Made by a program: the position numbers and the translations under genes
Notes under the pieces: generated by a model
Databases searched by the model: none
Seen by the model: only the letters and a program-made list of their open reading frames with translations
Told to the model about the DNA's origin: nothing
NCBI GenBank assembly: GCA_041663025.1
Contig: JBAZRE010000001.1
Span: 5,912-69,911, forward strand
Direction of reading: 5' to 3'
From: Minisyncoccota bacterium
GTDB lineage: Bacteria; Patescibacteriota; Minisyncoccia; Phycocordibacterales; Phycocordibacteraceae
Length of the DNA: 64,000 nucleotides
Shown here: one piece after another, positions 13,613-61,816 of the stretch
Layout: the number at the start of each line of letters is the position of its first letter
Numbering within the stretch: position 1 is the first letter of the stretch

Positions 13613-13633
13613 CCGTAAGGTGTCACCTTACGG
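13613..13633. repeat. REP-like hairpin, solitary copy of family 1
   Basis: Perfect palindrome CCGTAAGGTGTCACCTTACGG. The same unit occurs at 40057, 40098 and 40830-40874 next to a RAYT gene. Confidence 0.8.
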
Positions 13634-21322: not shown

Positions 21323-22246
21323 ATGTACGATTTAATAATCATCGGCGGGGGGCCGGCGGGGGTGGCTGCAGGCATTTATGCAGCACGGAAACATCTAAAA
21401 GCGGTTCTGATTGCTGAAGAGATCGGCGGACAATCTGTTGTCTCAAGCGGCATAGAGAATTGGATCGGTATGCCGAAGATCAGTGGTGCAGATTTTGCGA
21501 AGTCTATGAGAGAGCATCTCGAGGTGGTGAAGGGCGATATTGTCACGCTCGCCATCGGCGAGCGTGTCGTCTCGCTTGAATCCCAACTTGGCGGTTTCAC
21601 CGCCAAAACAAAATCAGGCAAAGAATTTTCTGCAAAAGCTGTCCTCATTGCTTCTGGTGCCAGCCGCCGCAAGCTTGATATCCCGGGCGCAGATAAGTTT
21701 GAACATAAGGGTGTCACCTACTGCGCCTCCTGCGACGGCCTCCTCTTCTCGGGTATGGACGTCGCGGTGGTCGGTGGCGGTAATGCCGGTTTTGAGACGG
21801 CACTCCAACTTCTCGCGTATGCGAAATCGGTCACCCTTATTCATCGTCATGCAGAATTCAAGGCTGATCAGATAACAATAGAGAAAACGCGTGCTCATCC
21901 CAACATGCACATTATTGCTCATGCCGAGCCGACTGAAGTCATCGGCGAACAGTTTGTCACTGGTTTAAAATATAAAGACAAAGGGTCTGATGAAATAAGA
22001 GAAGTGAGTGTGTCTGGTATATTTGTCGAAGCGGGCGTTGTACCGAATACACAGTTTGCCGAAGGGTTTGTTGAGCTTGATGCGGTAAAAAGAGTGAAGA
22101 CCGATCCTCATAACCAACACACGAGCGTTGAGGGCATCTGGGCTGCCGGTGACTGCACCGACGAGCTCTACCATCAGAACAACATCGCCGCCGGCGACGG
22201 CGTTAAAGCAGCAGAAGATATTTATCTTTGGATCAAGAAGCAATAA
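21323..22246 (+). CDS. trxB: thioredoxin-disulfide reductase
   Basis: 307 aa. FAD motif DLIIIGGGPAG, redox-active CASCDG, and NAD(P) motif VAVVGGGNAG. Confidence 0.9.
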   Translation: MYDLIIIGGGPAGVAAGIYAARKHLKAVLIAEEIGGQSVVSSGIENWIGMPKISGADFAKSMREHLEVVKGDIVTLAIGERVVSLESQLGGFTAKTKSGKEFSAKAVLIASGASRRKLDIPGADKFEHKGVTYCASCDGLLFSGMDVAVVGGGNAGFETALQLLAYAKSVTLIHRHAEFKADQITIEKTRAHPNMHIIAHAEPTEVIGEQFVTGLKYKDKGSDEIREVSVSGIFVEAGVVPNTQFAEGFVELDAVKRVKTDPHNQHTSVEGIWAAGDCTDELYHQNNIAAGDGVKAAEDIYLWIKKQ

Positions 22247-25812: not shown

Positions 25813-26672
25813 GTGAAAAACAAACGGTTATTCTTTATCATGGTGGATGCCCCGATGGCTTCGGGAGCGCCTATGCCGCATGGAAAAAATTTGGCGACAC
25901 GGCAGAATATATTCCATTAAAATTACATGAGCGGCCCATCCCAGAAGGACTCGAGGGTAAACATCTCTTTTTTATCGACTTCACCTATCCGCAGGACATC
26001 ATGGATGAGATTGTGAAGACTGCTGCGTCTGTGACGGTTCTCGATCACCATCTCGGCATACAAGAGGTTGTGGAGAGTATGCCGGATCATGTGTTTGATG
26101 AAAAACGATCTGGTGCAACTATTGCATGGAGCTATTTTCATCCCGATGTTCCCATCCCGTTCTTGTTAAAATATGTTGAAGATGCGGATCGGTATGTTTT
26201 CTTACTTCCTGATTCTCGCGCGGTGATCGCCTACGCGTATGCGCAGCGATTTACTTTTGAAGATTGGGATCATCTCGTGCAAGAATTTGAAAATGAACAA
26301 ACGCGCGCAACATTGATAGAGAAGGGTAAGGTATATGCAGAATATTTTGCAATCTTAGTCGAACAAATCTCCAAAAAGGCGATACTCGTGTCGTTTGAAG
26401 GACACACCTGTTATCTCTCAGCCGCGACTGACATGTTCAAATCGGACGTGGGGAACAATCTTGCTCACCTACATCCACCGCTTGCCATTATCGCAAACCT
26501 GCATGGCGACGTCATAAACGTGTCACTCCGGAGTGACTCCAGCGTTGATGTATCAGTTATTGCACGGAAATATGGAGGAAATGGACATCCTCATGCGGCC
26601 GCCTTTCGATTGAAGTGGGGAGACCCACTCCCTTGGGTAGTGTTAGATGAAAATGAAAATCCTAGCCATTGA
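25809..26672 (+). CDS. DHH-family phosphoesterase (NrnA-like)
   Basis: VILYHGGCPDGFGSAYA and VLDHH (the DHH motif), plus a DHHA1-like C-terminus (…GGNGHPHAAAF). Confidence 0.7.
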   Translation: MSEKQTVILYHGGCPDGFGSAYAAWKKFGDTAEYIPLKLHERPIPEGLEGKHLFFIDFTYPQDIMDEIVKTAASVTVLDHHLGIQEVVESMPDHVFDEKRSGATIAWSYFHPDVPIPFLLKYVEDADRYVFLLPDSRAVIAYAYAQRFTFEDWDHLVQEFENEQTRATLIEKGKVYAEYFAILVEQISKKAILVSFEGHTCYLSAATDMFKSDVGNNLAHLHPPLAIIANLHGDVINVSLRSDSSVDVSVIARKYGGNGHPHAAAFRLKWGDPLPWVVLDENENPSH

Positions 26673-27891
26673 AACCTCGTGTGACGAGACCGCAATTGCG
26701 ATACTCGAGTGCACTGGAGATGAAACGCATGCTGAGTTTAAAGTACTTGGGAACGCACTCCTCTCACAAATAGAAATTCACAAACAATATGGCGGCGTCT
26801 TCCCTGCCCTCGCAAAACGCGAGCACGCGAAGAATCTCGTGCCGATTCTCGAGGCAGCACTCGAGGAAGCAGAGCTATTGCATGAAGACACCCAAGCAAT
26901 CGCGGATGAGACCCGCGCCAAAATTTCAGAAATTTTGGCGCGTGAGCCCGGTCTCACTGAAACGTTTTTCGAATTCATTTCTGAATGTGAGCCTCCTGCG
27001 ATCGACGAAATCGCCGTCACGGCCGGCCCCGGCCTCGAGCCGGCGCTCTGGGTCGGTATTAATTTTGCAAAGGCGCTCGCGCTCGTTTGGCAGAAGCCGC
27101 TAGTCGCGGTGAACCATATGGAGGGACACATACTCGCCGCACTTGCTCGGCAAGAAGCACGAAGCACGAAGCACGAAGAACCAAACGAATCTCAAACAGA
27201 AAAATTGGAAATTAAAAATGTGCAATTCCCCATACTCGCCCTCCTGATTTCTGGTGGACACACGCAGCTCGTCTTGATGCGTGAATGGCTTCAGTACGAG
27301 CTTATTGGAGAGACGCGTGATGATGCTGTTGGCGAGGCCTTCGATAAGGTTGCGCGCATGCTCGCACTCCCCTACCCTGGCGGTCCTGAGATCTCCAAGC
27401 TTGCAGAAGAAGTTAGGACATCGAATGTCCTAGTTTCTGAAATAGGACATTCGATGTCCAGACCCGAATTCAAACTCCCGAGGCCAATGATCAATGAAAA
27501 CAGCTGCGACTTCTCATTTGCCGGACTAAAAACTGCGGTGTTAAATTTATTGAAAAAGATCCCCGACATAAGTGACGATGATAAGAAACACATAGCGCAC
27601 GAATTCGAAAATGCCGTCACTGATGTTTTGTGGAAGAAGACTGCGCGTGCACTTGAAGAAACTGGCGCCCAAACACTCATCATCGGTGGTGGCGTCTCGG
27701 CCAACACTCACATCAAGCGGACTTTCCAAGAAAATGTCTCCCAAGAATTTTCTGAAGTTGCACTCAAGATACCGGCGGCATCGCTCTCAACCGATAACGC
27801 TATTATGATTGCCATCGCTGGCTACTATCGTGCCTTGCGCAAAGAATTTTCAAATGATTTTGTTGCAAATGGCAACCTCCCTCTTATCTGA
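26647..27891 (+). CDS. tsaD: tRNA N6-adenosine threonylcarbamoyltransferase TsaD (Kae1/YgjD family)
   Basis: MKILAIETSCDETAIAI…NHMEGHILA…ISGGHTQL…GGGVSAN. It carries two in-frame insertions. Confidence 0.9.
   Translation: MKMKILAIETSCDETAIAILECTGDETHAEFKVLGNALLSQIEIHKQYGGVFPALAKREHAKNLVPILEAALEEAELLHEDTQAIADETRAKISEILAREPGLTETFFEFISECEPPAIDEIAVTAGPGLEPALWVGINFAKALALVWQKPLVAVNHMEGHILAALARQEARSTKHEEPNESQTEKLEIKNVQFPILALLISGGHTQLVLMREWLQYELIGETRDDAVGEAFDKVARMLALPYPGGPEISKLAEEVRTSNVLVSEIGHSMSRPEFKLPRPMINENSCDFSFAGLKTAVLNLLKKIPDISDDDKKHIAHEFENAVTDVLWKKTARALEETGAQTLIIGGGVSANTHIKRTFQENVSQEFSEVALKIPAASLSTDNAIMIAIAGYYRALRKEFSNDFVANGNLPLI
27413..27462. repeat. in-frame palindromic element inside tsaD
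   Basis: GGACATCGAATGTCC – 14 nt – GGACATTCGATGTCC. Each 15-mer is self-complementary and the two are reverse complements. It encodes RTSNVLVSEIGHSMSRP. Confidence 0.8.
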
Positions 27892-27904
27892 TATATTTTA
27901 AATA

Positions 27905-30076
27905 ATGGACGATAAATTTCTCAAACCATACAACTCCTCCGCGACCGAGTCGCGCATCTACACAGCATGGGAGAAGAGTGGCCTCTTCAACCCAGATGAG
28001 TGTGTGAAGCGAGGTTTTGCAAAAACAGATTCGCCAAAGTATTCAATAGTGCTCCCGCCACCAAACGTCACTGGGCGACTACACATGGGTCACGCGCTCA
28101 TGCTCGCTGTCGAAGACATTTTTGTTCGCTATAAGCGCATGTGCGGTTATCGCACACTCTGGACTCCAGGCACTGATCACGCAGCTATCGCGACACAATC
28201 GGTTGTTGAGAAACAAATAAAAAAAGAAGAAAACAAAAGTCGTCACGATCTCGGACGCGAAGAATTACTCAAGCGCATTGGGGTATTCGCAAACGAAAGT
28301 CACGACACTATCGTGAGCCAATTAAAGACGATGGGTGCCTCGCTCGATTGGTCGCGCGAGGCCTTCACGCTTGATGAGACGCGGAGCCGTGCAGTTCGTA
28401 CCGTCTTCAAGCGTATGTATGATGCCGGTCTTATTTATCGAGGACTACGTATTGTGAATTGGGACCCAAAAGGCCAAACAACTATTTCTGATGATGAGAT
28501 TGTATATGAAGAACGTGCCGCAAAACTCTATACCTTTCGCTACAGTAAGGACTTCCCTATTTCTATCGCGACCACACGGCCTGAGACCAAGGTAGGTGAT
28601 GTTGCTGTGGCGGTGCATCCAGATGACGCGCGCTATACGGCCTTCGTCGGCAAAGAATACGATGCGGTTTTTTGTGATGTACCGATACACATAAAAATTG
28701 TTGCTGATAAAGAAGTCGACCCAACCTTTGGCACTGGTGCCGTCGGTCTCACGCCCGCCCATAGTCATGTTGACTGGGAGATTGCTGATCGGCATCTGCT
28801 CTCGCATGAAGTAATTATCATAAACGAGTACGCGAGGATGACAGTCGCTGGGCGCCTATTGGATAAGAAAACCACTGAAGCGAGAGAGGTGGTTATTGAA
28901 TGGCTGAAGGAAGAAGGCCTGTTGGAAAAGACAGAAGATACCGTGCAAAATATCGCAACCGCCGAACGTACCAGTGGCATCATCGAACCTCTGCCGAAAT
29001 TGCAATGGTGGATCGAGGTGAATAAGCCAATTCCTGGTCGTGGAAAGACACTGAAAGAGCTCATGCTTGAGCCGGTACGTTCAGGAGCCATTAAGATCAT
29101 TCCAGAATATTTTGAAAAAACGTATTTTCACTGGATAGAAAATCTTCGTGACTGGTGCATCAGCCGGCAGATCTGGTATGGGCATCGTATCCCCGTCTGG
29201 TATCGAGGTGAAGAAATCAGTGTCGGTATTGAACCTGCTGAAGCTGGTTGGACGCAAGATGAAGATACACTCGATACATGGTTTTCATCAGGACTTTGGA
29301 CCTTCTCTACTTTAGGCTGGCCAGACGACACCGATGATTTCAAAAACTACCATCCGACCGATTTGCTCGAGACTGGCTACGATATTCTCTTCTTCTGGGT
29401 CGCCCGCATGATACTCATGACCGAATTCACGATTGGTGATATCCCTTTTAAAACAGTGTATCTCCACGGAATGGTTCGCGATGCCCAAGGGCGCAAAATG
29501 TCAAAGTCACTCGGCAATAACCTTGATCCGCTTGATATCACGGCAAAGTTCGGTGCGGATGCTGCGCGTATGGCACTTGTTGTCGGCAATACGCCGGGAA
29601 CCGACATGCGAATAAGTGAGGATAAAGTGAAGGGCTACAAGCACTTCTCAAACAAACTCTGGAATATCGCTAGGTTTATTCTAGAAAACACCGTGGATAC
29701 GCCACAAAATCATGTAGGACGTACTACGTCCTACATGAGTGATAGTGACAAAAAGATTCTTTCTGAACTTGATGTTCTCACAAAAGAAATTACAAATGAT
29801 ATTGATGAATATCGCATCTATCTAGCCGCAGAAAAAATATATCACTACGCGTGGCACGAGCTTGCAGATAAAATTATTGAAGAATCAAAACCGATTCTCG
29901 CTGGCAGTGATGTGGCCGCAAAAGAATCGCGTGCTATCCTGCTCATACTCCTGCTCACTCGCGTTCTGAAGCTCCTCCACCCCTTCATGCCCTTCATTAC
30001 CGAAGAGATCTGGCAATCTATGCCGACAAAAGATTCTGAATTCCTAATGGTTGCCCCTTGGCCAGTGGTAGAATAA
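27905..30076 (+). CDS. valS: valine--tRNA ligase (compact form)
   Basis: 723 aa. PPPNVTGRLHMGHAL (HIGH) and KMSKSLGN (KMSKS). Confidence 0.9.
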   Translation: MDDKFLKPYNSSATESRIYTAWEKSGLFNPDECVKRGFAKTDSPKYSIVLPPPNVTGRLHMGHALMLAVEDIFVRYKRMCGYRTLWTPGTDHAAIATQSVVEKQIKKEENKSRHDLGREELLKRIGVFANESHDTIVSQLKTMGASLDWSREAFTLDETRSRAVRTVFKRMYDAGLIYRGLRIVNWDPKGQTTISDDEIVYEERAAKLYTFRYSKDFPISIATTRPETKVGDVAVAVHPDDARYTAFVGKEYDAVFCDVPIHIKIVADKEVDPTFGTGAVGLTPAHSHVDWEIADRHLLSHEVIIINEYARMTVAGRLLDKKTTEAREVVIEWLKEEGLLEKTEDTVQNIATAERTSGIIEPLPKLQWWIEVNKPIPGRGKTLKELMLEPVRSGAIKIIPEYFEKTYFHWIENLRDWCISRQIWYGHRIPVWYRGEEISVGIEPAEAGWTQDEDTLDTWFSSGLWTFSTLGWPDDTDDFKNYHPTDLLETGYDILFFWVARMILMTEFTIGDIPFKTVYLHGMVRDAQGRKMSKSLGNNLDPLDITAKFGADAARMALVVGNTPGTDMRISEDKVKGYKHFSNKLWNIARFILENTVDTPQNHVGRTTSYMSDSDKKILSELDVLTKEITNDIDEYRIYLAAEKIYHYAWHELADKIIEESKPILAGSDVAAKESRAILLILLLTRVLKLLHPFMPFITEEIWQSMPTKDSEFLMVAPWPVVE
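29711..29737. repeat. perfect 13-1-13 palindrome in frame inside valS
   Basis: CATGTAGGACGTA C TACGTCCTACATG, encoding HVGRTTSYM. The core GGACGT…ACGTCC resembles the tsaD and recG elements. Confidence 0.7.
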
Positions 30077-35820: not shown

Positions 35821-37502
35821 GGTTTTGGTGGTTCTCCAGCAGACGGAACAAGAGCGGCGGCGCGTTCGCTCGGTGTACGGATGAGCTTACTGATGGCATT
35901 GACTACGATACGAAATTCTTCGTTCTGGGTGAGATAGAGTGCGAACGCCGCCGCAATAAGACCGACCACCCCAGCAACCAACCCTTGTGTGAGGACTGAT
36001 GCAAGTGTTGTGAGTGGTGCGATGCCACCTTCAAAGGAGAGGGTTACATATGCCGCCGCGCCGCCAGCGATTGCAGCAATACAGCCGTCAAGGAGCGGTC
36101 GTGCAAGTGTACGCGCGAGAGCTGGAGAGACACTGCGAAGCGCCACGAGAGAAAGAACGGCTAAGAATATCTGGCCGAGTGTTGCCGCAAGTGCTAAAAG
36201 TAGGATGGCCGTCCCCGGTACATCACCGACGCGCAAGAGAGCGGCAAGCGAAGCAGGCATTCCTGCAGGCGGAAAAGAAAGAAACAGTACAGCGAGAAAT
36301 ACGGTGAGTAATGCTCCTGCAGATTGATACGCGAGCGGTCGCCATGATTGGCGTACTGCATACAATGCACGTGAGAATAGGAGCACGAGCCCTTGTGCGA
36401 CAAGCCCAACTGCAAGAATGGCCAGAAGTGCTGCAGTGAGTCGTGTCGCGTCCCAATCAAAGGCACCCGTTCCAAGAATCACGCGCACGATATGCGCACG
36501 CAGGACCGTGATGAGGCCGAGCGAAACAACGGACCAGAGGATAATATGCCGTGCGCTCGCAGATAGAATATTGGTAAACTCCTCACGTCGCTCAAGAGCT
36601 GATGCCTCAGAAAGTGCAGGAAACGCTGCAATGGCATACGAAGCCCCAATGAGCGAGAGCGGAACCGCCTCGAGATTACTAGCAAGAGTGAATACAGAGA
36701 CCGATCCTGAGCCAATCCTAGAAGCAAATGATGTTAAGAAAAGTGCGGTAATTGAGCCCATACCAAGCGCGAGCGAGCGAGGAATAGAGTCTCGAATGAC
36801 CGGCACCATAATAGCGAAGCTCGGTATACGGAAGTGTGGCACAACATCCGCTTCTATAAGCACAGGAATATTGACGGCGAGATAGGCAATCGCGCCAATC
36901 ACGACGCCCATTCCTATTCCAGGCAAACCAAAGTATGGATAAAGCAAAACTGCACCGAGAATAATGCCGAGGTTATATAGAACTGGCGATGTGGCGAAGA
37001 GCATAAAGCGCCGATGCACCTGCGTTACGCTCGAGAACACACCAGAAAGTCCCAACAAAATTGGTTGTATCAATAAGATACGTCCGAGAAGAATGAAATC
37101 GGACTGGTACGGAGAAGCAACAAGATTTGGATACAGAAGAGCTAAGAATTGAGGCATGAAGATAGCGAGGGCAACGCAGATCAAACCGCCAACACCGAAT
37201 AGAAATGTTGCTGATTCGGATAGGAGCCGACGCGTCGCTTCCCTATCCATTCCAGTAATGCGTGGAATGATGACATACGCGCTCACAAGCGAGGATACAA
37301 GGGCGAAGACAAGATCTGGCACACGAAATGCTGAGTAGTAGAGGTCGAGCACCTGCCCTGCACCAAAAGAATGTGCAAATACCCTGTCGCGCAAGAGCGC
37401 GAGAGCCTGAGAAGCAAGCGTGAGTCCGGCCAGCAAATACGCGGCCTGATGCAGGCCGCGTATTGGTGCCGCGATGCGCTCGAAGATTCGTCGAACCATC
37501 AC
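35817..37502 (-). CDS. murJ: lipid II flippase MurJ (MviN family)
   Basis: 561 aa with about 14 TM helices. The N-terminal region resembles MviN, and the C-terminal extension is hydrophobic. Confidence 0.75.
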   Translation of the reverse strand: MMVRRIFERIAAPIRGLHQAAYLLAGLTLASQALALLRDRVFAHSFGAGQVLDLYYSAFRVPDLVFALVSSLVSAYVIIPRITGMDREATRRLLSESATFLFGVGGLICVALAIFMPQFLALLYPNLVASPYQSDFILLGRILLIQPILLGLSGVFSSVTQVHRRFMLFATSPVLYNLGIILGAVLLYPYFGLPGIGMGVVIGAIAYLAVNIPVLIEADVVPHFRIPSFAIMVPVIRDSIPRSLALGMGSITALFLTSFASRIGSGSVSVFTLASNLEAVPLSLIGASYAIAAFPALSEASALERREEFTNILSASARHIILWSVVSLGLITVLRAHIVRVILGTGAFDWDATRLTAALLAILAVGLVAQGLVLLFSRALYAVRQSWRPLAYQSAGALLTVFLAVLFLSFPPAGMPASLAALLRVGDVPGTAILLLALAATLGQIFLAVLSLVALRSVSPALARTLARPLLDGCIAAIAGGAAAYVTLSFEGGIAPLTTLASVLTQGLVAGVVGLIAAAFALYLTQNEEFRIVVNAISKLIRTPSERAAALVPSAGEPPKP

Positions 37503-40056: not shown

Positions 40057-40118
40057 CCGTAAGGTGACACCTTACGGTTTTTGGTATTTCCCCAGCTCCG
40101 TAAGGTGACACCTTACGG
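40057..40118. repeat. two tandem REP-like hairpins (family 1) upstream of the RAYT gene
   Basis: CCGTAAGGTGACACCTTACGG at 40057-40077 and again at 40098-40118. Confidence 0.85.
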
Positions 40119-40155: not shown

Positions 40156-40827
40156 ATGACAAAGAGAGATGCCCCGTTTGCTGTCGGCGAGTGGTACCAC
40201 TGCTACAACCGTGGTATTGAAAAGCGTACCGTGTTTGAAGATACCAGGGATTATCATCGCTTTCTCGAACTCCTTTACTTGGCAAATGATGAGTTCCCTC
40301 TCCGGCGTGAAGATATCGGCACATATAAATTTGAAGAAATATTAAAGATTCCCCGCGGCAAGAAATTGGTCGCCATTGGAGCGTTCTGCCTGATGCCTAA
40401 CCACTTCCATCTGGTGCTGAAGGAGATCTCGGAGGGAGGTATCACCGCATTTATGCGAAAAATCGGAACATCCTATACTTTGTATTTTAATGCACGGCAT
40501 GAGAGGACTGGAAACCTCTTCCTAAAGCCATTCCGATCCCTTCATGTATCTAACGACCGTTACTTCCAACACCTCATTAACTATGTTCACTGCAATCCAG
40601 CAGCTCTCTATGAACCTGGGTGGAAAACTAACCAGGTTGTGGACCCTCAATTCTTGGGAGAACAGATTGCAGCTTATCCATACTCAAGTCTTGGTGCCCA
40701 TACTGGTGCACACCCATCGACCAGACCCATCCTGGATGCAGAAGTATTCTCCATAACGCATACTGTTCGGATACAAAAGATGCTGCAAGAAGCACGACAG
40801 TATTACGCTGATTCTAATCTTCCGTAA
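40156..40827 (+). CDS. IS200/IS605-family Y1 (HUH) transposase-like protein, REP-associated (RAYT-like)
   Basis: ATG at 40156 (MTKRDAPF…) is preferred. The N-terminal part of the longer track ORF overlaps the REP hairpins. WYHCYNRG…, the HUH motif CLMPNHFHLVL, and the catalytic Tyr region YVHCNPAA. Confidence 0.75.
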   Translation: MTKRDAPFAVGEWYHCYNRGIEKRTVFEDTRDYHRFLELLYLANDEFPLRREDIGTYKFEEILKIPRGKKLVAIGAFCLMPNHFHLVLKEISEGGITAFMRKIGTSYTLYFNARHERTGNLFLKPFRSLHVSNDRYFQHLINYVHCNPAALYEPGWKTNQVVDPQFLGEQIAAYPYSSLGAHTGAHPSTRPILDAEVFSITHTVRIQKMLQEARQYYADSNLP

Positions 40828-40874
40828 GGCCGTAAGGTGTCACTTTACGTCAGGCGTAAAGTGACACCTTACGG
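40822..40874. repeat. compound REP-like hairpin (family 1) downstream of the RAYT gene
   Basis: CCGTAAGG + CCGTAAGGTGTCACTTTACG-tcaggc-CGTAAAGTGACACCTTACGG (a 20-bp stem). Confidence 0.8.
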
Positions 40875-40898: not shown

Positions 40899-41241
40899 CG
40901 GACTGAACTAAGCGATCGCCCGCCAACATCTGCGAAGTTGTGGCGGGAGGAAAGTCCGAACATACTCCTGCCGTAAGGCGGGAAAATAGGTAGCGGGTAA
41001 CGCCCGTCGTCCGTGAGGATAGAGGTGACCACAGAAACGTCCTGAGCGAAAGTGAAGGAATTCCCTCGTGGAATACGCCCGTCGCGAGATGGGAATGCAA
41101 CGACTAAATCCTTACCCGTATGCAAGGCCGTGCCCGACCACACTTCGAGTGTGACGGGAGTGACGCTTAAGGCGTTGAGTAATTAACGGCTCAGATAAAT
41201 GATCGCTCACGACAGAATTCGGCTTATCGGCTCAGTCCACA
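40899..41241 (+). ncRNA. rnpB: RNase P RNA (bacterial type A-like)
   Basis: P1 pairs GGACTGA (40900-40906) with TCAGTCC (41232-41238). The P4 5' strand is GGGAGGAAAGTCCGAACA, the P4 3' strand is ACAGAATTCGGCTTATCGG, and the internal sequence GCGAAAGTGAAGG is also present. Confidence 0.8.
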
Positions 41242-41248
41242 AAGATGC

Positions 41249-44993: not shown

Positions 44994-46224
44994 TTATTTA
45001 ATCCGGCCGCGGAGTTTTTCGGCGGAGAGAATACGGTTGACGGCGAGGATATAGGCCGCTTGGCGCAGGGTGACACTTCCCTTCTTCTCTTGGAATACTT
45101 CGTACATCCGCTGCCAATTGTCCTTCATCTTTTTTTCTAGCAAGCTGCGCAAGTAATCCTCCTCGAGAATCTGCCCAGTGCGATTCTGCGCCCATTCAAA
45201 ATAGCTTGCGATGACGCCGCCAGAGTTTGCGAGGATATCCGGGATCACCACTTTCTTGTTTGCTTCTAGAATGCCATCGGCATCATAATCAACTGGGCCA
45301 TTGGCTAATTCAATAATGTACTTTGCTTGAATGTTTCCTGCATTTGCTTTAGTTACCTGATTGCTTAAGGCCGCTAACACCAGAATGTCAGCTGGCAACT
45401 CAAGCAGCTCGGCATTGGTGACTTTTTCTCCTGCCTCATATTCGCAGACCTGCCGACCTTTTCTCTTACATTCGATAAGCCCAGGAATATTCAGACCTTT
45501 TTTATCGTAGATACCGCCCTTACTGTCAGAGACCGCGACGATCTTAAAGCCGTCTTGATGTAGCTTCTCTGCCATATAGAGCCCAGCGTTGCCAAACCCT
45601 TGAATAATGACACTTAGGTTCTTTTTGCCCGCCAAAAATGTCTCCACCATCTTCTTCGCTATTAAATAACCTCCCTGCGCTGTCGCGTCGCCGCGCATCG
45701 CGATACCGCCAAGCTCAACCGGCTTGCCGGTGATCATGCCTGGTTCATGATGCCCAACCTGCTTTTCAAATTCATCAAGCATCCACGACATGATCTGACT
45801 ATCGGTATAGACATCAGGAGCTGGGATATCTTTGTCCTGCCCAAGATAGGTATGAAATGCCTGAATATATTTGCGACTCACCTCCTCAAGCTCCGCCTTA
45901 TCAGCATCTTTTGGATTAAAACAAACACCTCCCTTCGCACCACCATATGGGATGTCTGCCAAAGAATTCTTCAATGCCATCCAGAAAGCGAGAGACTTCA
46001 CCTCGTCTTCGTCTACTTCAGGATGGAAGCGAATACCGCCCTTGCCTGGACCAAGAGCTCTATTGTAGACAATCCGCCACGCCGGATAGCGATTTCCCTT
46101 AATACTCAGCTCGGTGTAGTTAACCTGCACAGGGTCAAGCAACACCGCCATGTCGGTGTTGCTGATACTGGCTATCTTCTGGATATCATTCAAACGCTTC
46201 AGATTATCTTCAGTGATGCTCATT
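44994..46224 (-). CDS. gdhA: NAD(P)-dependent glutamate dehydrogenase
   Basis: Start at MSITEDNLKRL… (about 46224), giving about 410 aa. The track ORF extends about 107 aa further N-terminally through a terminator hairpin and promoter-like TATATACT, which is rejected. Catalytic GGAKGG and Rossmann GFGNAG motifs are present. Confidence 0.85.
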
Positions 46225-46620
46225 TCTTTGTTATTACGTATCAGTAAACTATTTCTTACAGAGTATATACCAAAAATTAAGAAGGGCGCGGATCCTCTGG
46301 TCCGCGCCCAATAAAAGTGATTCTTATTTAACTTGAGTAGACTACCTTTGGCCAGTGAACAATCTGTTTGGTTATAACCTGCTTTTCTGGATATGTCGGC
46401 TTTTGTTTTACCGATATTTCTCCCAAATAACAGATTATTCGATATTGTTTCCCGCAACTCTTGTTCTCGCACTGAACGTATGTAGCTTCTCGATGCTTGA
46501 CCGACTTTTTGCGAAAACCAATTACCACAATCTCCTCGCCACATCTACACTTCGGTATAGCATTGTGTGCTTCCTTGTACCCAACCTCCTTCCGCCACAG
46601 ACTATATCACAGCCAAAATG

Positions 46621-50045: not shown

Positions 50046-52292
50046 ATGACTCCTGGTGATCTGATAGAAAAGCACTTTACTCGGCTCAAGCCGGAGCAGA
50101 AGCGGGCGTTGCATAAGCTGAAGATTCGCACAGTTCGTGATCTGCTCTACCACTTCCCCGCGCGCTACGAGAACGCGGGTGCAACGGGAACGATTGCTGG
50201 GATAGCAGCAGGCGCCGAGGTAACGCTCTATGGCACCATCAGGAAGCCTGATATCAGGAAGACGTGGAAGAGCCGTCGACCGATCGCCGAGGCATGGCTC
50301 GAAGATGCCTCTGGGAAGATTAAGATGATGTGGTTCAGCCAGCCCTATATCGCGAAGACTCTTCACGATGGGATGGTGGTTAAAGTGAGTGGGAAGGTGG
50401 CAGGAGCAGGAGCGAAGATTTATTTGGCGAACCCAACGATCGATAAATCGCCAATAGCTCCAGACGCAGTGCATAATTCTTTATTCAATCAGAATGTTAG
50501 GACATCGGATGTCCAAGTCATCGGAGGACATCCGATGTCCCAGAGCCGAGGTGACTCCTCGCGTGAGAGAGGTGTCTCCTCGGCTTCGGCTCCGGGACTC
50601 TTTCCAGTATATCCGGAGAGCCAGGGAGTCTCTTCGCTCTGGTTCTTACATGCGGTAAAAAAGATTTTTGAGGCGGGAGTGCACGAACAAATTGAAGACC
50701 CGATTCCAGCTGAAATTCTCGCACGCTACAATCTCCCCTCGCTCTCTTCTGCGATTGTTTTTATACATGCACCAAAAAAACTTTCGGACGCAACGGCAGC
50801 GCGCAAACGATTCGCCTTTGAAGAAGTGTTCGCGCTCCAGATAGTGATGCAACAACGCCGTCGCCTCCTACTCTCTGAAAAGGCGCTGCCCGTCGCCGTC
50901 GATCGTTCTAAACTCGCTGATTTTATTGCCTCATTCCCCTTCCCTGCTACCGCCGCGCAGATGCACGCGATTGAAGCTATCGTGAGCGATTTTGAAAAAT
51001 CAAGTCCGATGTTGCGACTTCTTGAAGGCGATGTGGGTAGCGGCAAGACCGCTGTCGCAGCCGCCACTGCCTATTTAGTAGCGACATCTCTGCCAAAAGG
51101 CAGAATTGCCGGTACTTTGCAGGTTGCCTATCTCTGCCCGACTGAAATCCTCGCAAAACAGCATTTTTCAACTTTTGTTTCTTATTTTAAAGACCATCCG
51201 ATCCCCATTGGTCTTATTACCGGCAGTGAATGTCGTAAGTTCCCGTCAAAAGTGCGGTATGAAGAATCTGCGAAACTCTCAAAAGTAGCGTTTAAGAAGA
51301 TGGTAGCGAATGGTGAAATACCGATTGTTATCGGCACGCACGCCATCGTCGAAAAATCAGTCAGTTTTAAATATTTTGCCTACGCGATTATTGATGAACA
51401 GCATAGGTTTGGCACGATCCATCGACAGAAGCTCGCGACCAAGGGTGATATTGCGCCACACTTGCTATCAATGACCGCAACGCCAATTCCGCGCACACTC
51501 GCGCTCACGCTTTATGGCGATCTGGATTTAACTCTTCTTGATGAAATGCCAGTGGGACGCAAGCCAGTCATCACTGAGATACTTGTGCCAAAAGAGCGTG
51601 CGAGAGCATACGAGCGCGTGCGCGCCGAGCTCGCGGCCGGCCATCAGGCCTATGTGATCTGCCCCAGAATAGACGAACCAGATCCTGCTAAAGAACTCGC
51701 GCTCATCGCGAAATCAGTGAAGGCCGAGGCGGCGCGCCTTCAAAAAGACGTATTCCCCGAGGCGGAAATAGGAATATTGCACAGTAAAATGACGCCGTCA
51801 GAAAAAGAAGAGACGATGCGAGAATTTGAGAAAGGTAAAATAGATATTCTCGTCGCGACGTCAGTGGTTGAAGTGGGTGTGAACGTCGCGAATGCGACCG
51901 TGATTCTCATCGAGGGTGCCGAACGCTTCGGGCTCGCGCAGCTGCATCAGCTGCGCGGACGAGTTATTCGCTCAACGTATCAATCCTATTGTTTTGCCCT
52001 TCCAGAATCATCTGGCGATACGACACGTGAACGCATGAAAGCATTTAAGAATGCAAAAAACGGCTTCGAGCTCGCCGAATATGACCTCGCGCTTCGCGGC
52101 GCGGGCGAGCTCGCTGGCGGGCGGCAGTGGGGCGTCTCAGACATCGCGATGGAGGCGCTTAAAAATATAAAATTAGTTGAAGCCGCCCGCACCGAAGCGG
52201 CGACTCTTGTCGCCGCCGATCCCGACCTCCACAATCACCCTGTCCTTCTCCTCCGAGCTGCCACTGCGGATAAAGAGATGCATTTGGAGTGA
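50046..52292 (+). CDS. recG: ATP-dependent DNA helicase RecG
   Basis: 748 aa. Wedge/OB N-domain, helicase motif I GDVGSGKT, DEQHRFG, and motif VI QLRGRV. It carries an in-frame palindromic insertion near codons 150-165. Confidence 0.9.
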   Translation: MTPGDLIEKHFTRLKPEQKRALHKLKIRTVRDLLYHFPARYENAGATGTIAGIAAGAEVTLYGTIRKPDIRKTWKSRRPIAEAWLEDASGKIKMMWFSQPYIAKTLHDGMVVKVSGKVAGAGAKIYLANPTIDKSPIAPDAVHNSLFNQNVRTSDVQVIGGHPMSQSRGDSSRERGVSSASAPGLFPVYPESQGVSSLWFLHAVKKIFEAGVHEQIEDPIPAEILARYNLPSLSSAIVFIHAPKKLSDATAARKRFAFEEVFALQIVMQQRRRLLLSEKALPVAVDRSKLADFIASFPFPATAAQMHAIEAIVSDFEKSSPMLRLLEGDVGSGKTAVAAATAYLVATSLPKGRIAGTLQVAYLCPTEILAKQHFSTFVSYFKDHPIPIGLITGSECRKFPSKVRYEESAKLSKVAFKKMVANGEIPIVIGTHAIVEKSVSFKYFAYAIIDEQHRFGTIHRQKLATKGDIAPHLLSMTATPIPRTLALTLYGDLDLTLLDEMPVGRKPVITEILVPKERARAYERVRAELAAGHQAYVICPRIDEPDPAKELALIAKSVKAEAARLQKDVFPEAEIGILHSKMTPSEKEETMREFEKGKIDILVATSVVEVGVNVANATVILIEGAERFGLAQLHQLRGRVIRSTYQSYCFALPESSGDTTRERMKAFKNAKNGFELAEYDLALRGAGELAGGRQWGVSDIAMEALKNIKLVEAARTEAATLVAADPDLHNHPVLLLRAATADKEMHLE
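50499..50539. repeat. in-frame palindromic element inside recG
   Basis: GGACATCGGATGTCC – 11 nt – GGACATCCGATGTCC. The 15-mers are self-complementary and the peptide is VRTSDVQVIGGHPMSQSR, similar to the tsaD insert. Confidence 0.8.
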
Positions 52293-52306
52293 GCTTGAAA
52301 ACAAGA

Positions 52307-52346
52307 AAACAAGGGTGCCCCTTGCAGCAAGGGGCACCCTTGTTTT
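52307..52346. repeat. GC-rich REP-like hairpin (family 2) between recG and 52346..53182
   Basis: AAAACAAGGGTGCCCCTTG-cagca-AGGGGCACCCTTGTTTT (stem of at least 15 bp). It may also act as a bidirectional terminator. Confidence 0.8.
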
Positions 52347-53222: not shown

Positions 53223-53269
53223 CAAGGGTGCCCCTTGTATCTTGCACAAGCTTACAAGGGGCACCCTTG
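53223..53269. repeat. REP-like hairpin (family 2) upstream of the second RAYT gene
   Basis: CAAGGGTGCCCCTTG – 17 nt – CAAGGGGCACCCTTG. Confidence 0.8.
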
Positions 53270-53293
53270 TTAGGTTACGATAGTAAATAAGTT

Positions 53294-53923
53294 ATGAGAA
53301 AACGCGATTATAAAGAATTCGCTCCCGACACGTCCTATCACATCTATAACCGTGGAAACGGTAAAATGGACATTTTTCGTGATGAACAAGATTACTTGAA
53401 CTTTCTCAAGCGCCTTCGCCTCTTGCTCGGTAAAACAAGGGGCACCCTTGCATCGTCAATTCGAGTTACGCCATTTGAATCAGACGACTTCTCGCTTATT
53501 GCCTACTGTCTAATGCCAAATCACTTCCACTTGCAGGTAGAACAATGCGGAGAAGTGTCATTAAGTAGCCTCTTGCTTAAGGTGTGTACGAGTTATTCTA
53601 TGTATTTCAATCGTAAGTATGACCATGTCGGGCACGTGTTCCAAGATCAATTTAAAGCCATTCCGGTTGAGTCAGATAATCAAATGGCCGCATTGTCGGC
53701 ATACATACACCAAAATCCAAAAGTGGCAGGGTTAGTAGACACTCTCGACGCGTGGGTTTATAGCAGTTATCCGGATTATATTGGACTTCGGCAGGGCGAT
53801 CTTATTGATCCCGAATCAGTACTCGGTCAATTTCCAAATAAAGAAGCCTACAAAAGTTTCGTGGACGAGCAATACGAAGAAATTCTTGAACGAAAAAATA
53901 TCAGAGAACTCCTTCTTGATTAA
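53294..53923 (+). CDS. IS200/IS605-family Y1 (HUH) transposase-like protein, REP-associated (RAYT-like), second copy
   Basis: 209 aa. YHIYNRGNGKMDIF…, the HUH motif CLMPNHFHLQV, and the Tyr region YIHQNP. A family-2 REP half-site AAAACAAGGGGCACCCTTG lies in frame at 53433-53451 and encodes KTRGTLA. Confidence 0.75.
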   Translation: MRKRDYKEFAPDTSYHIYNRGNGKMDIFRDEQDYLNFLKRLRLLLGKTRGTLASSIRVTPFESDDFSLIAYCLMPNHFHLQVEQCGEVSLSSLLLKVCTSYSMYFNRKYDHVGHVFQDQFKAIPVESDNQMAALSAYIHQNPKVAGLVDTLDAWVYSSYPDYIGLRQGDLIDPESVLGQFPNKEAYKSFVDEQYEEILERKNIRELLLD

Positions 53924-53924
53924 C

Positions 53925-53969
53925 TGCAAGGGGCACCCTTGTAATTTAATTACAAGGGTGCCCCTTGCG
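53925..53969. repeat. REP-like hairpin (family 2) downstream of the RAYT gene
   Basis: CTGCAAGGGGCACCCTTG-taatttaat-TACAAGGGTGCCCCTTG. Confidence 0.8.
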
Positions 53970-53973
53970 ACTT

Positions 53974-54048
53974 GTCCGCCCCCTTGGACTCGAACCAAGA
54001 ACCGCAGAGGTATAAGCTCTGTGCTCTAACCAATTGAGCTAGGGGCGG
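53974..54048 (-). tRNA. tRNA-Ile with genomically encoded UAU anticodon
   Basis: Reverse complement CCGCCCCTAGCTCAATTGGTTAGAGCACAGAGCTTATACCTCTGCGGTTCTTGGTTCGAGTCCAAGGGGGCGGA. U8 is present, the D-arm is Ile/Met-like, the anticodon loop is CTTATAC, and the T-loop is TTCGAGT. Confidence 0.7.
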
Positions 54049-58426: not shown

Positions 58427-58569
58427 TTTGTATACAAGAGCCAGCAACCTATCGAGGTTGCTGGCTCTTCTTTTTGCTTTTTTGTCCTATGTCCGCTAAG
58501 GTGAGTTCAGAAAACAGTTGGGTTGGCTGGCTGTTTATTTTGTACATTCTAAACAAGAAGGAGGGCGAC

Positions 58570-60997: not shown

Positions 60998-61816
60998 TTA
61001 TGCAAGCAGAGTACCGCCGTCAACGACAATTTGTGAGCCAGTCATATAGGAGGAGAGATCCGAGGCGAGGAAGAGCGCGACCTTAGCAATTTCGTCAGCA
61101 TCTGCCATGCGATGCATAGGGATCTTCGCAATGAAAGGTTCCATTATTTTCGCGAGTGCTGGATCCACCGGCTTCCCGAGCCCTGTGCCGGGCGTCGAGA
61201 CGCCGCCAGGCGCAATAGCGTTTACCCATATCTTATGTGGCGCTAGCTCAAGCGCAAGATTTTTGGTAAAGCCCCAGAGGCCGTGTTTTGAAGCATCGTA
61301 GAATGCAAGGCCGATTGAAGAAGGGTGGAGTGCATCAATCGAAGTGATATTGATGATAGAGCCACCCCTGCCCTGCTCGATCATCTGCTTCGCCGCAGCT
61401 TGCGCACAGAGGAATGCGCCTTTGAGATTTATCGCGAGAATCTTCTCAAAATCTGCGAGTGATGCGTCCATCACCGATACTTCGGGATAGATCCCTGCAT
61501 TGTTGATGAGGATATCCACGCCGCCGAGCTCACTCACAGCTTTTGTAATCATCGATTCAACTTGTGATTCATCAGAAACATCAACAGCGAATGCGGTAGA
61601 GCCATTGATTTTTGCCGCGGCCGCCTCGGCGGCCGCGGTGTCTTTATCGGCAATGAGTACTTTTGCGCCTGCCTCTGCGAGCCTGCTCGCAATCGCAAAG
61701 CCAATCCCCATTGCACCGCCCGTCACAATCGCGACCTTCTCTGAGAGATCCATACATTCTGAAATGGTTTTTTGTTCCATGATCTTAGTATACCAACGAA
61801 ATGATAGCGGCGACAC
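60998..61816 (-). CDS. short-chain dehydrogenase/reductase (SDR) family oxidoreductase
   Basis: VAIVTGGAMGIGFAIA (TGxxxGxG), NAG, and Y…K in SIGLAFYDASKHGL. The probable start is MDLSEK… at about 61753. Confidence 0.8.
   Translation of the reverse strand: MSPLSFRWYTKIMEQKTISECMDLSEKVAIVTGGAMGIGFAIASRLAEAGAKVLIADKDTAAAEAAAAKINGSTAFAVDVSDESQVESMITKAVSELGGVDILINNAGIYPEVSVMDASLADFEKILAINLKGAFLCAQAAAKQMIEQGRGGSIINITSIDALHPSSIGLAFYDASKHGLWGFTKNLALELAPHKIWVNAIAPGGVSTPGTGLGKPVDPALAKIMEPFIAKIPMHRMADADEIAKVALFLASDLSSYMTGSQIVVDGGTLLA

Follow-up and report, generated by a model that had tools for sequence, protein, structure and literature searches.

Intragenic dimers of the GTAG/CGTC type of repetitive extragenic palindromic (REP) sequence encode 20–30 amino acids within genes of Opitutus, Thioalkalivibrio, Thauera and Rickettsia, and many intragenic REPs reside in replication and repair genes, for example uvrA, uvrB and dnaE, where they have been proposed to form flexible linkers or loops (Di Nocera et al. 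2013, PMC3733652). As cited in that paper, the Rickettsia palindromic elements (RPEs) are in-frame palindromic inserts, in a reduced genome, within genes that are likely still functional. Here we analyze a 64,000-nt stretch of DNA from a Minisyncoccota bacterium (Patescibacteriota; contig JBAZRE010000001.1, positions 5,912 to 69,911), hereafter the window, in which an inverted doublet of short GGACAT hairpins lies in frame within recG and a sister copy lies in frame within tsaD. We consider it probable, at roughly three chances in four, that this element is a non-autonomous mobile element of the REP or REPIN (REP doublet forming a hairpin) type, whose stop-free, in-frame copies persist in tolerant protein loops. 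Intragenic REPs and RPEs are already known; an intragenic REP-like family in the Patescibacteria has apparently not yet been described, and the literature that we searched held no description of REPs or of REP-associated tyrosine transposases (RAYTs) in Patescibacteria or the candidate phyla radiation (CPR).

Like the REPs of Di Nocera et al. (PMC3733652), the units of this family are short hairpins, often arranged as inverted dimers, that occur in frame within genes whose protein products are known, and the hosts are again of repair type (here RecG, UvrA, UvrB and PriA), together with aminoacyl-tRNA synthetases. Unlike those REPs, which are mostly intergenic, about 71–74% of the copies listed lie in long open reading frames (ORFs); moreover, the unit is shorter (15–21 nt), GTTA or nothing stands in place of GTAG/CGTC, and the hosts are Patescibacteria. 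In-frame insertion into genes for functional proteins is likewise common to the window and the RPEs. RPE-1, described by Ogata and coworkers in 2000, is reportedly roughly 100–150 bp long and encodes about 30–50 amino acids; by comparison, the window element is only 41–54 nt long and belongs to another host lineage, and the RPEs have no RAYT partner that we know of. Classical REPINs are about 100 nt long, extragenic and present in hundreds of copies, whereas the units here are 35–54 nt long and mostly intragenic, with at least around ten exact-arm copies per metagenome-assembled genome (MAG) among the matches listed. The resemblance to the REPIN–RAYT systems of Pseudomonas and the Enterobacteria (Bertels and Rainey 2011, PMC3116915; PMC3337134) lies in the inverted REP pair with a spacer that folds into a long hairpin, in single-copy RAYT genes flanked by their own REPs, and in the presence of several REP families per genome, each with a RAYT (two RAYTs and two palindrome families in the window). 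With the peel-and-paste elements of the IS200/IS605 group, moved by the HUH-type Y1 transposase TnpA, the system shares the Pfam Y1_Tnp family, hairpin ends and the lack of a target-site duplication; unlike those elements, the one described here carries no transposase, and no target tetra- or pentanucleotide emerged from its flanks.

The recG ORF of the window (50046–52292, plus strand, from the ORF list) encodes 748 amino acids with the Pfam domains RecG_wedge, DEAD, Helicase_C and RecG_dom3_C, and its product is 100% identical to a database RecG from a Candidatus Paceibacterota MAG. The element within it consists of a first REP arm, GGACATCGGATGTCC, a 7-bp palindrome about a central G (50500–50514), an 11-nt spacer, AAGTCATCGGA (aagtcatcgga; 50515–50525, plus strand), that forms the loop of the long hairpin, and a second arm, GGACATCCGATGTCC, which matches the reverse complement of the first arm at every base (50526–50540). 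(An earlier note on this DNA, made from the sequence alone, had placed the repeat at 50499–50539; the sequence is real, and its true coordinates, 50500–50540, lie one base to the right.) The doublet occupies codons 152–165, in keeping with the earlier estimate of codons about 150–165, and reads in frame as NQNVRTSDVQVIGGHPMSQ. Flank listings and a comparison with locus L120 identify an accompanying 5′ tail, AATCAGAATGTTA (50487–50499, plus strand), and in the flank listings many copies of the window's subtype have GTTA, often AAGTTA, before the first hairpin. As single-stranded DNA the doublet folds at -17.7 kcal/mol (z = -6.8), and in the minimum-energy folds of the doublets arm 1 pairs with arm 2 to give one long hairpin. 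Directly 3′, and unmentioned in the earlier note, lies a second hairpin doublet of an unrelated family, GCCGAGGTGACTCCTCGCGTGAGAGAGGTGTCTCCTCGGC (CGAGGTGACTCCTCG / AGAGGTGTCTCCTCG; 50544–50585; -16.7 kcal/mol, z = -4.8), which reads in frame as SRGDSSRERGVSSAS and is the only copy of its family in the window; the RecG loop therefore contains two palindromic inserts in tandem.

The host gene of the sister element is the tsaD ORF at 26647–27891 (plus strand; 414 amino acids; Pfam TsaD, E = 4e-80, and solved-structure alignments). The element itself (27409–27459, plus strand), defined by sequence search, fold and structure gaps, comprises the tail GAAGTTA followed by GGACATCGAATGTCC, TAGTTTCTGAAATA and GGACATTCGATGTCC; its core (27416–27459), with a 14-nt spacer, occupies codons 257–271 and reads EVRTSNVLVSEIGHSMS. 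It folds as single-stranded DNA at -20.5 kcal/mol (z = -10.9), and the gap opposite the element in solved-structure alignments is 15 residues in TsaD 8iey and 14 in 4wq5. The predicted peptide segments of the insert regions are VRTSDVQVIGGHPMS in RecG and VRTSNVLVSEIGHSMS in TsaD. The earlier note had stated that one repeat family occurs in these two unrelated essential genes, in the same relative frame and not by coincidence, and this was borne out by shuffles and by a search of the window for the 15-mer with up to two mismatches, which returned exactly four hairpins, those of the recG and tsaD doublets (expected number 0.10; four or more in 0 of 100 shuffles).

Both segments are insertions, as judged for recG from the absence of the segment from most close RecG orthologs and for tsaD from the gaps opposite the element in solved TsaD structures. 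The RecG of T. maritima (1gm5) aligned with the window's protein at query residues 14–118 and 185–719 only, with 66 query residues against 26 in between. We took as the RecG protein set the 120 closest cluster representatives (79–100% identical) and as the loop the residues between SLF and YP(I/V)YPES; the loop measures 11–12 residues in 64 of these proteins, contains the peptide of the doublet (VRTSDV...GHPMS) in 14, contains RTSDV once in 4, and is long for other reasons in 38, the 39-residue loop of the window being the longest. Conservation of the segment among RecG orthologs was what, according to the earlier note, would speak against an insertion, and the alignment upholds the insertion. 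In the DNA-level comparison, which covered 75 loci, the recG of L120 (88% identity) has the second doublet only, leaving the window with a net 54 nt more, which we place at 50487–50540, and the nearest relative, L117 (91% identity), has neither doublet.

The earlier note had further proposed counting copies genome-wide. We scanned one genome per species (596 Gb in all) for the pattern GGACAT-NNN-ATGTCC, 5–30 nt, GGACAT-NNN-ATGTCC with exact arms, for which the counts are lower bounds, biased to well-kept copies. The scan found at least 116 loci in reference contigs, whereas by our own estimate such a 24-base doublet pattern would be expected about 0.1 times by chance in 596 Gb. The GGACAT family is strongly enriched in Patescibacteria: by record title, 87 of the loci listed belong to this group (Kaiserbacteria, Paceibacterota, Moranbacteria, Saccharibacteria, Nealson-, Jorgensen- and Falkowbacteria), 17 are unlabelled and 12 belong to other phyla, with the proviso that the titles of binned MAGs can be wrong (L001 is titled Saccharibacteria yet has a TsaD very like that of the window). 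At least 13 loci are found in the Moranbacteria MAG MFSE01 and several in each of other MAGs, so that, as for REPs, a short palindromic unit occurs at many loci per genome. The pattern matched only five times among the viral contigs of IMG/VR, which argues that the family is not phage-borne.

Subfamilies differ in the centre triplet, in the spacer and in the outward extension of the palindrome. The two arms have centre triplets that are reverse complements of each other in 91 of the 121 copies listed, with 11 types of triplet represented (among shuffles, the average was 20.8 and the highest value 33), whereas centres that pair within each arm were seen in only 72 copies among those listed; the conserved feature is therefore the long hairpin between the arms, as in a REPIN. 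In L171 matching changes have occurred in both arms, and in L118 (GGACACCCGGTGTCC) a compensated pair lies inside one arm. The doublet also moves or is copied as a unit, to judge from spacers only one or two bases apart (TAGTTTCTGAAATA / TAGTTTCTGAACTA) that the window's tsaD copy shares with the recG copy of L143 and with L083. Spacers nearly identical to that of the window's recG copy are found in recG of L125 and L024.

Candidate transposase genes accompany the family. The RAYT homologs of L048 and L105 have GGACAT hairpins on both flanks, and the Moranbacteria RAYT of L039 (555–1286, minus strand) is followed directly after its stop by a GGACAT doublet and holds a further one in frame inside its ORF (QEKKWTSNVHYGHSMSISSK), shortly before the HUH motif. 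Two RAYT-like genes lie in the window. RAYT 1 (53294–53923, plus strand) is an IS200-like Y1 transposase gene (Pfam Y1_Tnp, E = 8e-10; NCBIfam REP_Tyr_transpos, E = 1e-12) whose translation includes the HUH motif, NHFHL, and YIHQNP; repeat listing and fold place a REP doublet, CAAGGGTGCCCCTTG ... CAAGGGGCACCCTTG, 5′ of the gene (53223–53270) and another doublet of the same family directly 3′ of its stop (53926–53968). RAYT 2 (40156–40827, plus strand; NCBIfam REP_Tyr_transpos, E = 1e-8), which was found by tblastn, is 36% identical to RAYT 1 and includes NHFHL and NYVHCNP, with two copies of CCGTAAGGTGACACCTTACGG on its 5′ side (40057–40118) and an inverted doublet of the CCGTAAGG family directly 3′ (40830–40874). 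The HUH and catalytic-tyrosine motifs are thus present in both proteins, and NCBIfam REP_Tyr_transpos was the sole hit for all five RAYT-like proteins considered. An ortholog of RAYT 1 in L142 (77% identical) has the same palindrome, and RAYT 1 with its flanking hairpins adjoins the same tRNA gene in the window (53975–54048) and in L142, which fits a vertically inherited, single-copy gene. The RAYT of L126 is flanked by yet another palindrome; across the window, L142 and L126, every RAYT has its own flanking palindrome family, which is the architecture of a REPtron.

These features are consistent with a mechanism in which two inverted 15-nt REP hairpins (core GGACAT-NNN-ATGTCC) with a short spacer would form one long hairpin in single-stranded DNA, which an IS200-like RAYT of the HUH/Y1 type would recognize and move in trans on single-stranded DNA, leaving no target-site duplication. 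In Patescibacteria genomes, with almost no intergenic space, copies would land in genes, and those that persist would be the ones that add a multiple of three bases, are free of stops in the host frame and lie in tolerant surface loops, for example the RecG linker from wedge to helicase or the TsaD loop between GGPxIS.LA and LPRP. Surviving copies would then be translated as 12–18 extra residues. From sequence relationships we infer that a RAYT catalyzes the movement of GGACAT copies; the RAYT that would serve the window's genome, if there is one, and the translation of inserted copies are likewise putative.

The setting of the copies listed bears on this mechanism. We judged coding status by stop-free stretches and by nine Pfam checks, which found Pfam domains on both sides of the element in LeuRS, UvrA, TsaD, UvrB, PriA, PheT, AlaRS, a Mur ligase and MnmA. 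Stops are absent over 600 nt or more around 76 of 103 doublets listed, compared with 80% of random positions in the same loci; in a stricter test, which called for at least 150 nt open on both sides and left out the non-Patescibacteria titles, the figures were 62 of 87 (71%) and 65%. Copies thus lie inside long ORFs no less than random positions do, and the extragenic location expected of classical REPs was not seen. Certain sites are occupied more than once: in TsaD, differing subtypes fill GGPxIS.LA-[insert]-LPRP in L001, L009, L029, L031, L049 and the window; four loci share an occupied LeuRS site, and three share one in UvrA. Beside the LeuRS site, which is in the editing domain, a second recurrent site lies near the anticodon-binding domain (L042, VEKLGHPMSSADLD; L107, IERLGHPMSKSAEDIGCP), and a single MnmA gene in L022 (5955–6480) contains the same 49-nt GGACAT doublet twice, in frame at each of two sites. 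The recurrence of certain loops could reflect their tolerance or the targeting of pre-existing hairpins.

The earlier note saw in the shared frame and orientation of the recG and tsaD copies the mark of a mobile, frame-preserving element. Insertion and a family of mobile type (the GGACAT hairpins flanking RAYT genes in L048, L105 and L039) agree with the first part of that claim, whereas the second part fails: 82 intragenic copies listed from other genomes use all three frames (41, 25 and 16 copies), giving peptides with RTSDV, DIGCP or GHPMS. In the tsaD copy both of the other plus-strand frames contain stops, and in the recG copy one does, so that the frame common to the two genes is largely forced by survivorship and is not telling evidence; apparent frame preservation is an outcome of selection rather than a property of the element. 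Nor does orientation tell much, since the cores are 73–86% identical to their own reverse complement. As to a target motif shared by insertion sites, also raised in the earlier note, the flanks show only the palindrome extensions specific to each subtype and the (A)AGTTA tail, and part of the flank conservation comes from orthologous copies (the four LeuRS loci). No target-site duplication beyond chance was found, direct repeats at the boundaries being no commoner than at random positions, and a DDE-type miniature inverted-repeat transposable element was rejected on that ground.

Comparison of close relatives showed that the recG loop is a hotspot for different palindrome families. GGACAT doublets occupy it at 13 loci and a single GGACAT hairpin in L154; CGAGG-type doublets, related to the second doublet of the window, are found in L120, L160, L195 and the window; and L137 and others have a 19-nt inverted repeat. 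Since a neighbor-joining tree of RecG is star-like at about 80% identity, we used a nearest-neighbor permutation test, in which the GGACAT state proved unclustered (common to 1 of 13 nearest neighbors; permutation mean 2.3). L118, which has the doublet, and L128, which does not, are 95% identical. In the 11 doublet-bearing recG genes compared, the 19-nt arm is 94.5% identical, whereas the near-saturated third codon positions of the flanks are 42.5% identical. Together with the unclustered states, this contrast indicates that the GGACAT copies are not passively inherited relics of one old event; recurrent insertion, arms kept by selection, and homogenization are three possibilities for the conservation of the arms.

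Selection of the arms would also be expected if the doublet were a cis element of use to the host, such as a site where a nucleoid or gyrase-like protein binds, where translation or transcription pauses, or where an RNase acts, that sits in genes for want of intergenic space and may have had a REP origin (domestication). The conservation of the arms over their flanks fits such an element, as do the compensatory changes that keep pairing in L118 and L171, the very stable RNA fold of the two recG doublets together (-58.5 kcal/mol) and the repeated occupation of the same RecG, TsaD, LeuRS and UvrA loops. We nevertheless regard this explanation as unlikely. Most orthologs have no hairpin of any kind at the recG site, unrelated palindrome families in one loop fit tolerance better than a specific signal, and the host genes are functionally unrelated. 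Moreover, a known Rfam RNA was rejected for the elements, because a scan of the whole window at the gathering score gave no match at 50500–50585 or 27409–27459 and matched RNase P, tmRNA and tRNAs only.

Palindromes in the recG loop also differ in dosage. Single CAAGGTTCGACCTTG palindromes occupy loops of unaltered length (11–12 residues) in L128, L130, L146 and L178, and the corresponding doublets, which occur in both orders (L123 and L127), are exactly 18 nt longer; a 23-nt palindrome is single in L167 (GTAAAGAGGTTAAACCTCTTTAC) and double in L134 and L135. Such clean additions of 18 or 30 nt, together with perfect single palindromes in loops of unchanged length and with the tandem 7-nt repeats in the loops of L126 and L179, would be expected if the hairpins arose in place, by template switching of replication at quasi-palindromes in mutation-tolerant loops and with no transposition, a process that would also yield complementarity between arms. 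As an account of the family this is highly improbable, for it does not account for a 15-mer and 5′ tail that are the same, and spacers that are almost so, across unrelated genes and more than 80 genomes, nor for the hairpins at both flanks of RAYT genes. Template switching may well contribute to arm complementarity after insertion. In L123 and L127 the CAAGG doublets have opposite internal order (QQGRTLQQGSTL and QGSTLQQGRTL), having either been flipped or been inserted independently in both orientations. We do not assign these CAAGG..CCTTG hairpins to the CAAGGG family of RAYT 1, with which they have only a 5-bp stem in common.

That the segment might instead be an ancestral loop, or a module kept at the protein level as the peptide VRTSDV...GHPMS, its palindromy being incidental, is suggested by the recurrence of the peptide at one RecG site in those 14 of 120 orthologs and at one TsaD site in six loci. 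Yet the segment is absent from most orthologs and unclustered in the RecG tree, the reading of all three frames in other genes gives unrelated peptides, and conservation is at the nucleotide level, synonymous sites included, which leaves this possibility very remote. An AlphaFold model of RecG built with 44 close homologs gave residues 135–203 the lowest confidence and no secondary structure, which would likewise not suit a protein module, although the model is poor (mean predicted local distance difference test score 54.8) because the alignment is shallow. The recG genes of L118 and L128 share about 98% identity on the 3′ side of the loop and about 80% on its 5′ side, a step that marks either a breakpoint of recombination or a join made in assembly at the hairpin loop. 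This step is what speaks for chimeric joining of metagenome contigs at short repeats as the source of the elements, which has next to no chance of being correct, given that long ORFs stay open across the element in more than 60 independent assemblies from many studies, that the window's RecG protein is identical on two contigs, and that 41–54 nt is less than the largest k-mers common in metagenome assembly.

Several observations weigh against a REP- or REPIN-type mobile element. No GGACAT-flanked RAYT is present in the 64-kb window, the two RAYTs there being flanked by CAAGGG and CCGTAAGG palindromes, and the copies in the window may therefore be relics. Of the three loci with a RAYT next to GGACAT hairpins, L105 comes from a MAG titled Gammaproteobacteria, and all five RAYT-like proteins, at 22–48 bits, fall short of the curated NCBIfam cut-off of 80. 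The REP unit, of 15–21 nt, is unusually small and has neither GTAG nor CGTC, the tags that mark the two described REP super-families, with (A)AGTTA in the window's subtype and an extension of the palindrome in others instead; nor is the family extragenic. No clean empty site was found among the closest filled and unfilled recG pairs (L118 and L128; the window and L117), which differ by replacement of the whole loop; since filled and empty loops look replaced, the comparison delimits neither the element nor its target. Finally, it could also be selection on a host function that keeps the arms so highly conserved.

The window contains further palindromes. A CAAGGG-family REP doublet lies between convergent ORFs at 52306–52346, 14 nt past the recG stop, so that palindromic elements are found both within recG and just past its end; this doublet is a 41-nt perfect hairpin with a 20-bp stem, resembles a terminator and is in the position of a classical REP. 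Within recG, a palindrome with a 10-bp stem, CGCGCAGCTGCATCAGCTGCGCG (51935–51957), encodes the conserved RecG motif AQLHQLR and was rejected as an insert, as it arises from the peptide (CAGCTG repeated). In tsaD, a 29-nt perfect palindrome, CGCGCCAAAATTTCAGAAATTTTGGCGCG (26914–26942; peptide RAKISEILAR), lies inside a stretch of about 37 TsaD residues (81–117) that is unaligned to solved structures and is also present in the TsaD of L001; it is probably a second, different hairpin insert. A palindrome in the ValRS gene, TCATGTAGGACGTACTACGTCCTACATGA (29710–29738), has TAGGAC...GTCCTA in common with the GGACAT family and was rejected as a clear insertion, with only about five extra residues relative to the ValRS of T. 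thermophilus (1gax). RAYT 2 is immediately upstream of the RNase P RNA gene (40900–41242), and a further copy of the CCGTAAGGTGACACCTTACGG hairpin lies at 13613–13633. In all, 36 perfect hairpins whose stems reach 8 bp or more occur in the window, compared with 8–12 in Markov shuffles, many of them inside long ORFs (for example, at 21544–21606, 37436–37464, 46138–46309, 58436–58469 and 61615–61638), and a tendency to carry palindromes inside genes appears general in this genome.

REPs are extragenic by definition, and here a REP-like family lies in genes as often as chance allows in genomes with almost no intergenic DNA. The family offers a tangible origin for part of the extra loops of Patescibacteria proteins that have lacked an explanation, and with it a caution for annotation and structure prediction that loops of this kind are selfish DNA and not functional motifs. 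It also provides natural markers for permissive insertion sites in RecG, TsaD, LeuRS and UvrA, extends REPIN and RAYT biology to a large uncultured radiation, and offers, in the turnover of palindrome families at one loop, a tractable case for how hairpin elements choose or retain their sites. More tentatively, and with somewhat less than even odds, we propose that the Patescibacteria (CPR) have lineage-wide populations of miniature RAYT-associated hairpin doublets that, in contrast to classical REPs, reside mainly in essential genes and repeatedly settle in, and displace each other from, a few permissive loops (the RecG wedge–helicase linker, the TsaD loop, the LeuRS editing domain and UvrA). 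If so, the doublets would continually supply variation in loop length to otherwise streamlined proteomes, their location in essential genes could shield them from imprecise deletion, and the compensatory changes that keep the hairpins would leave room for a host function at the level of DNA or RNA.

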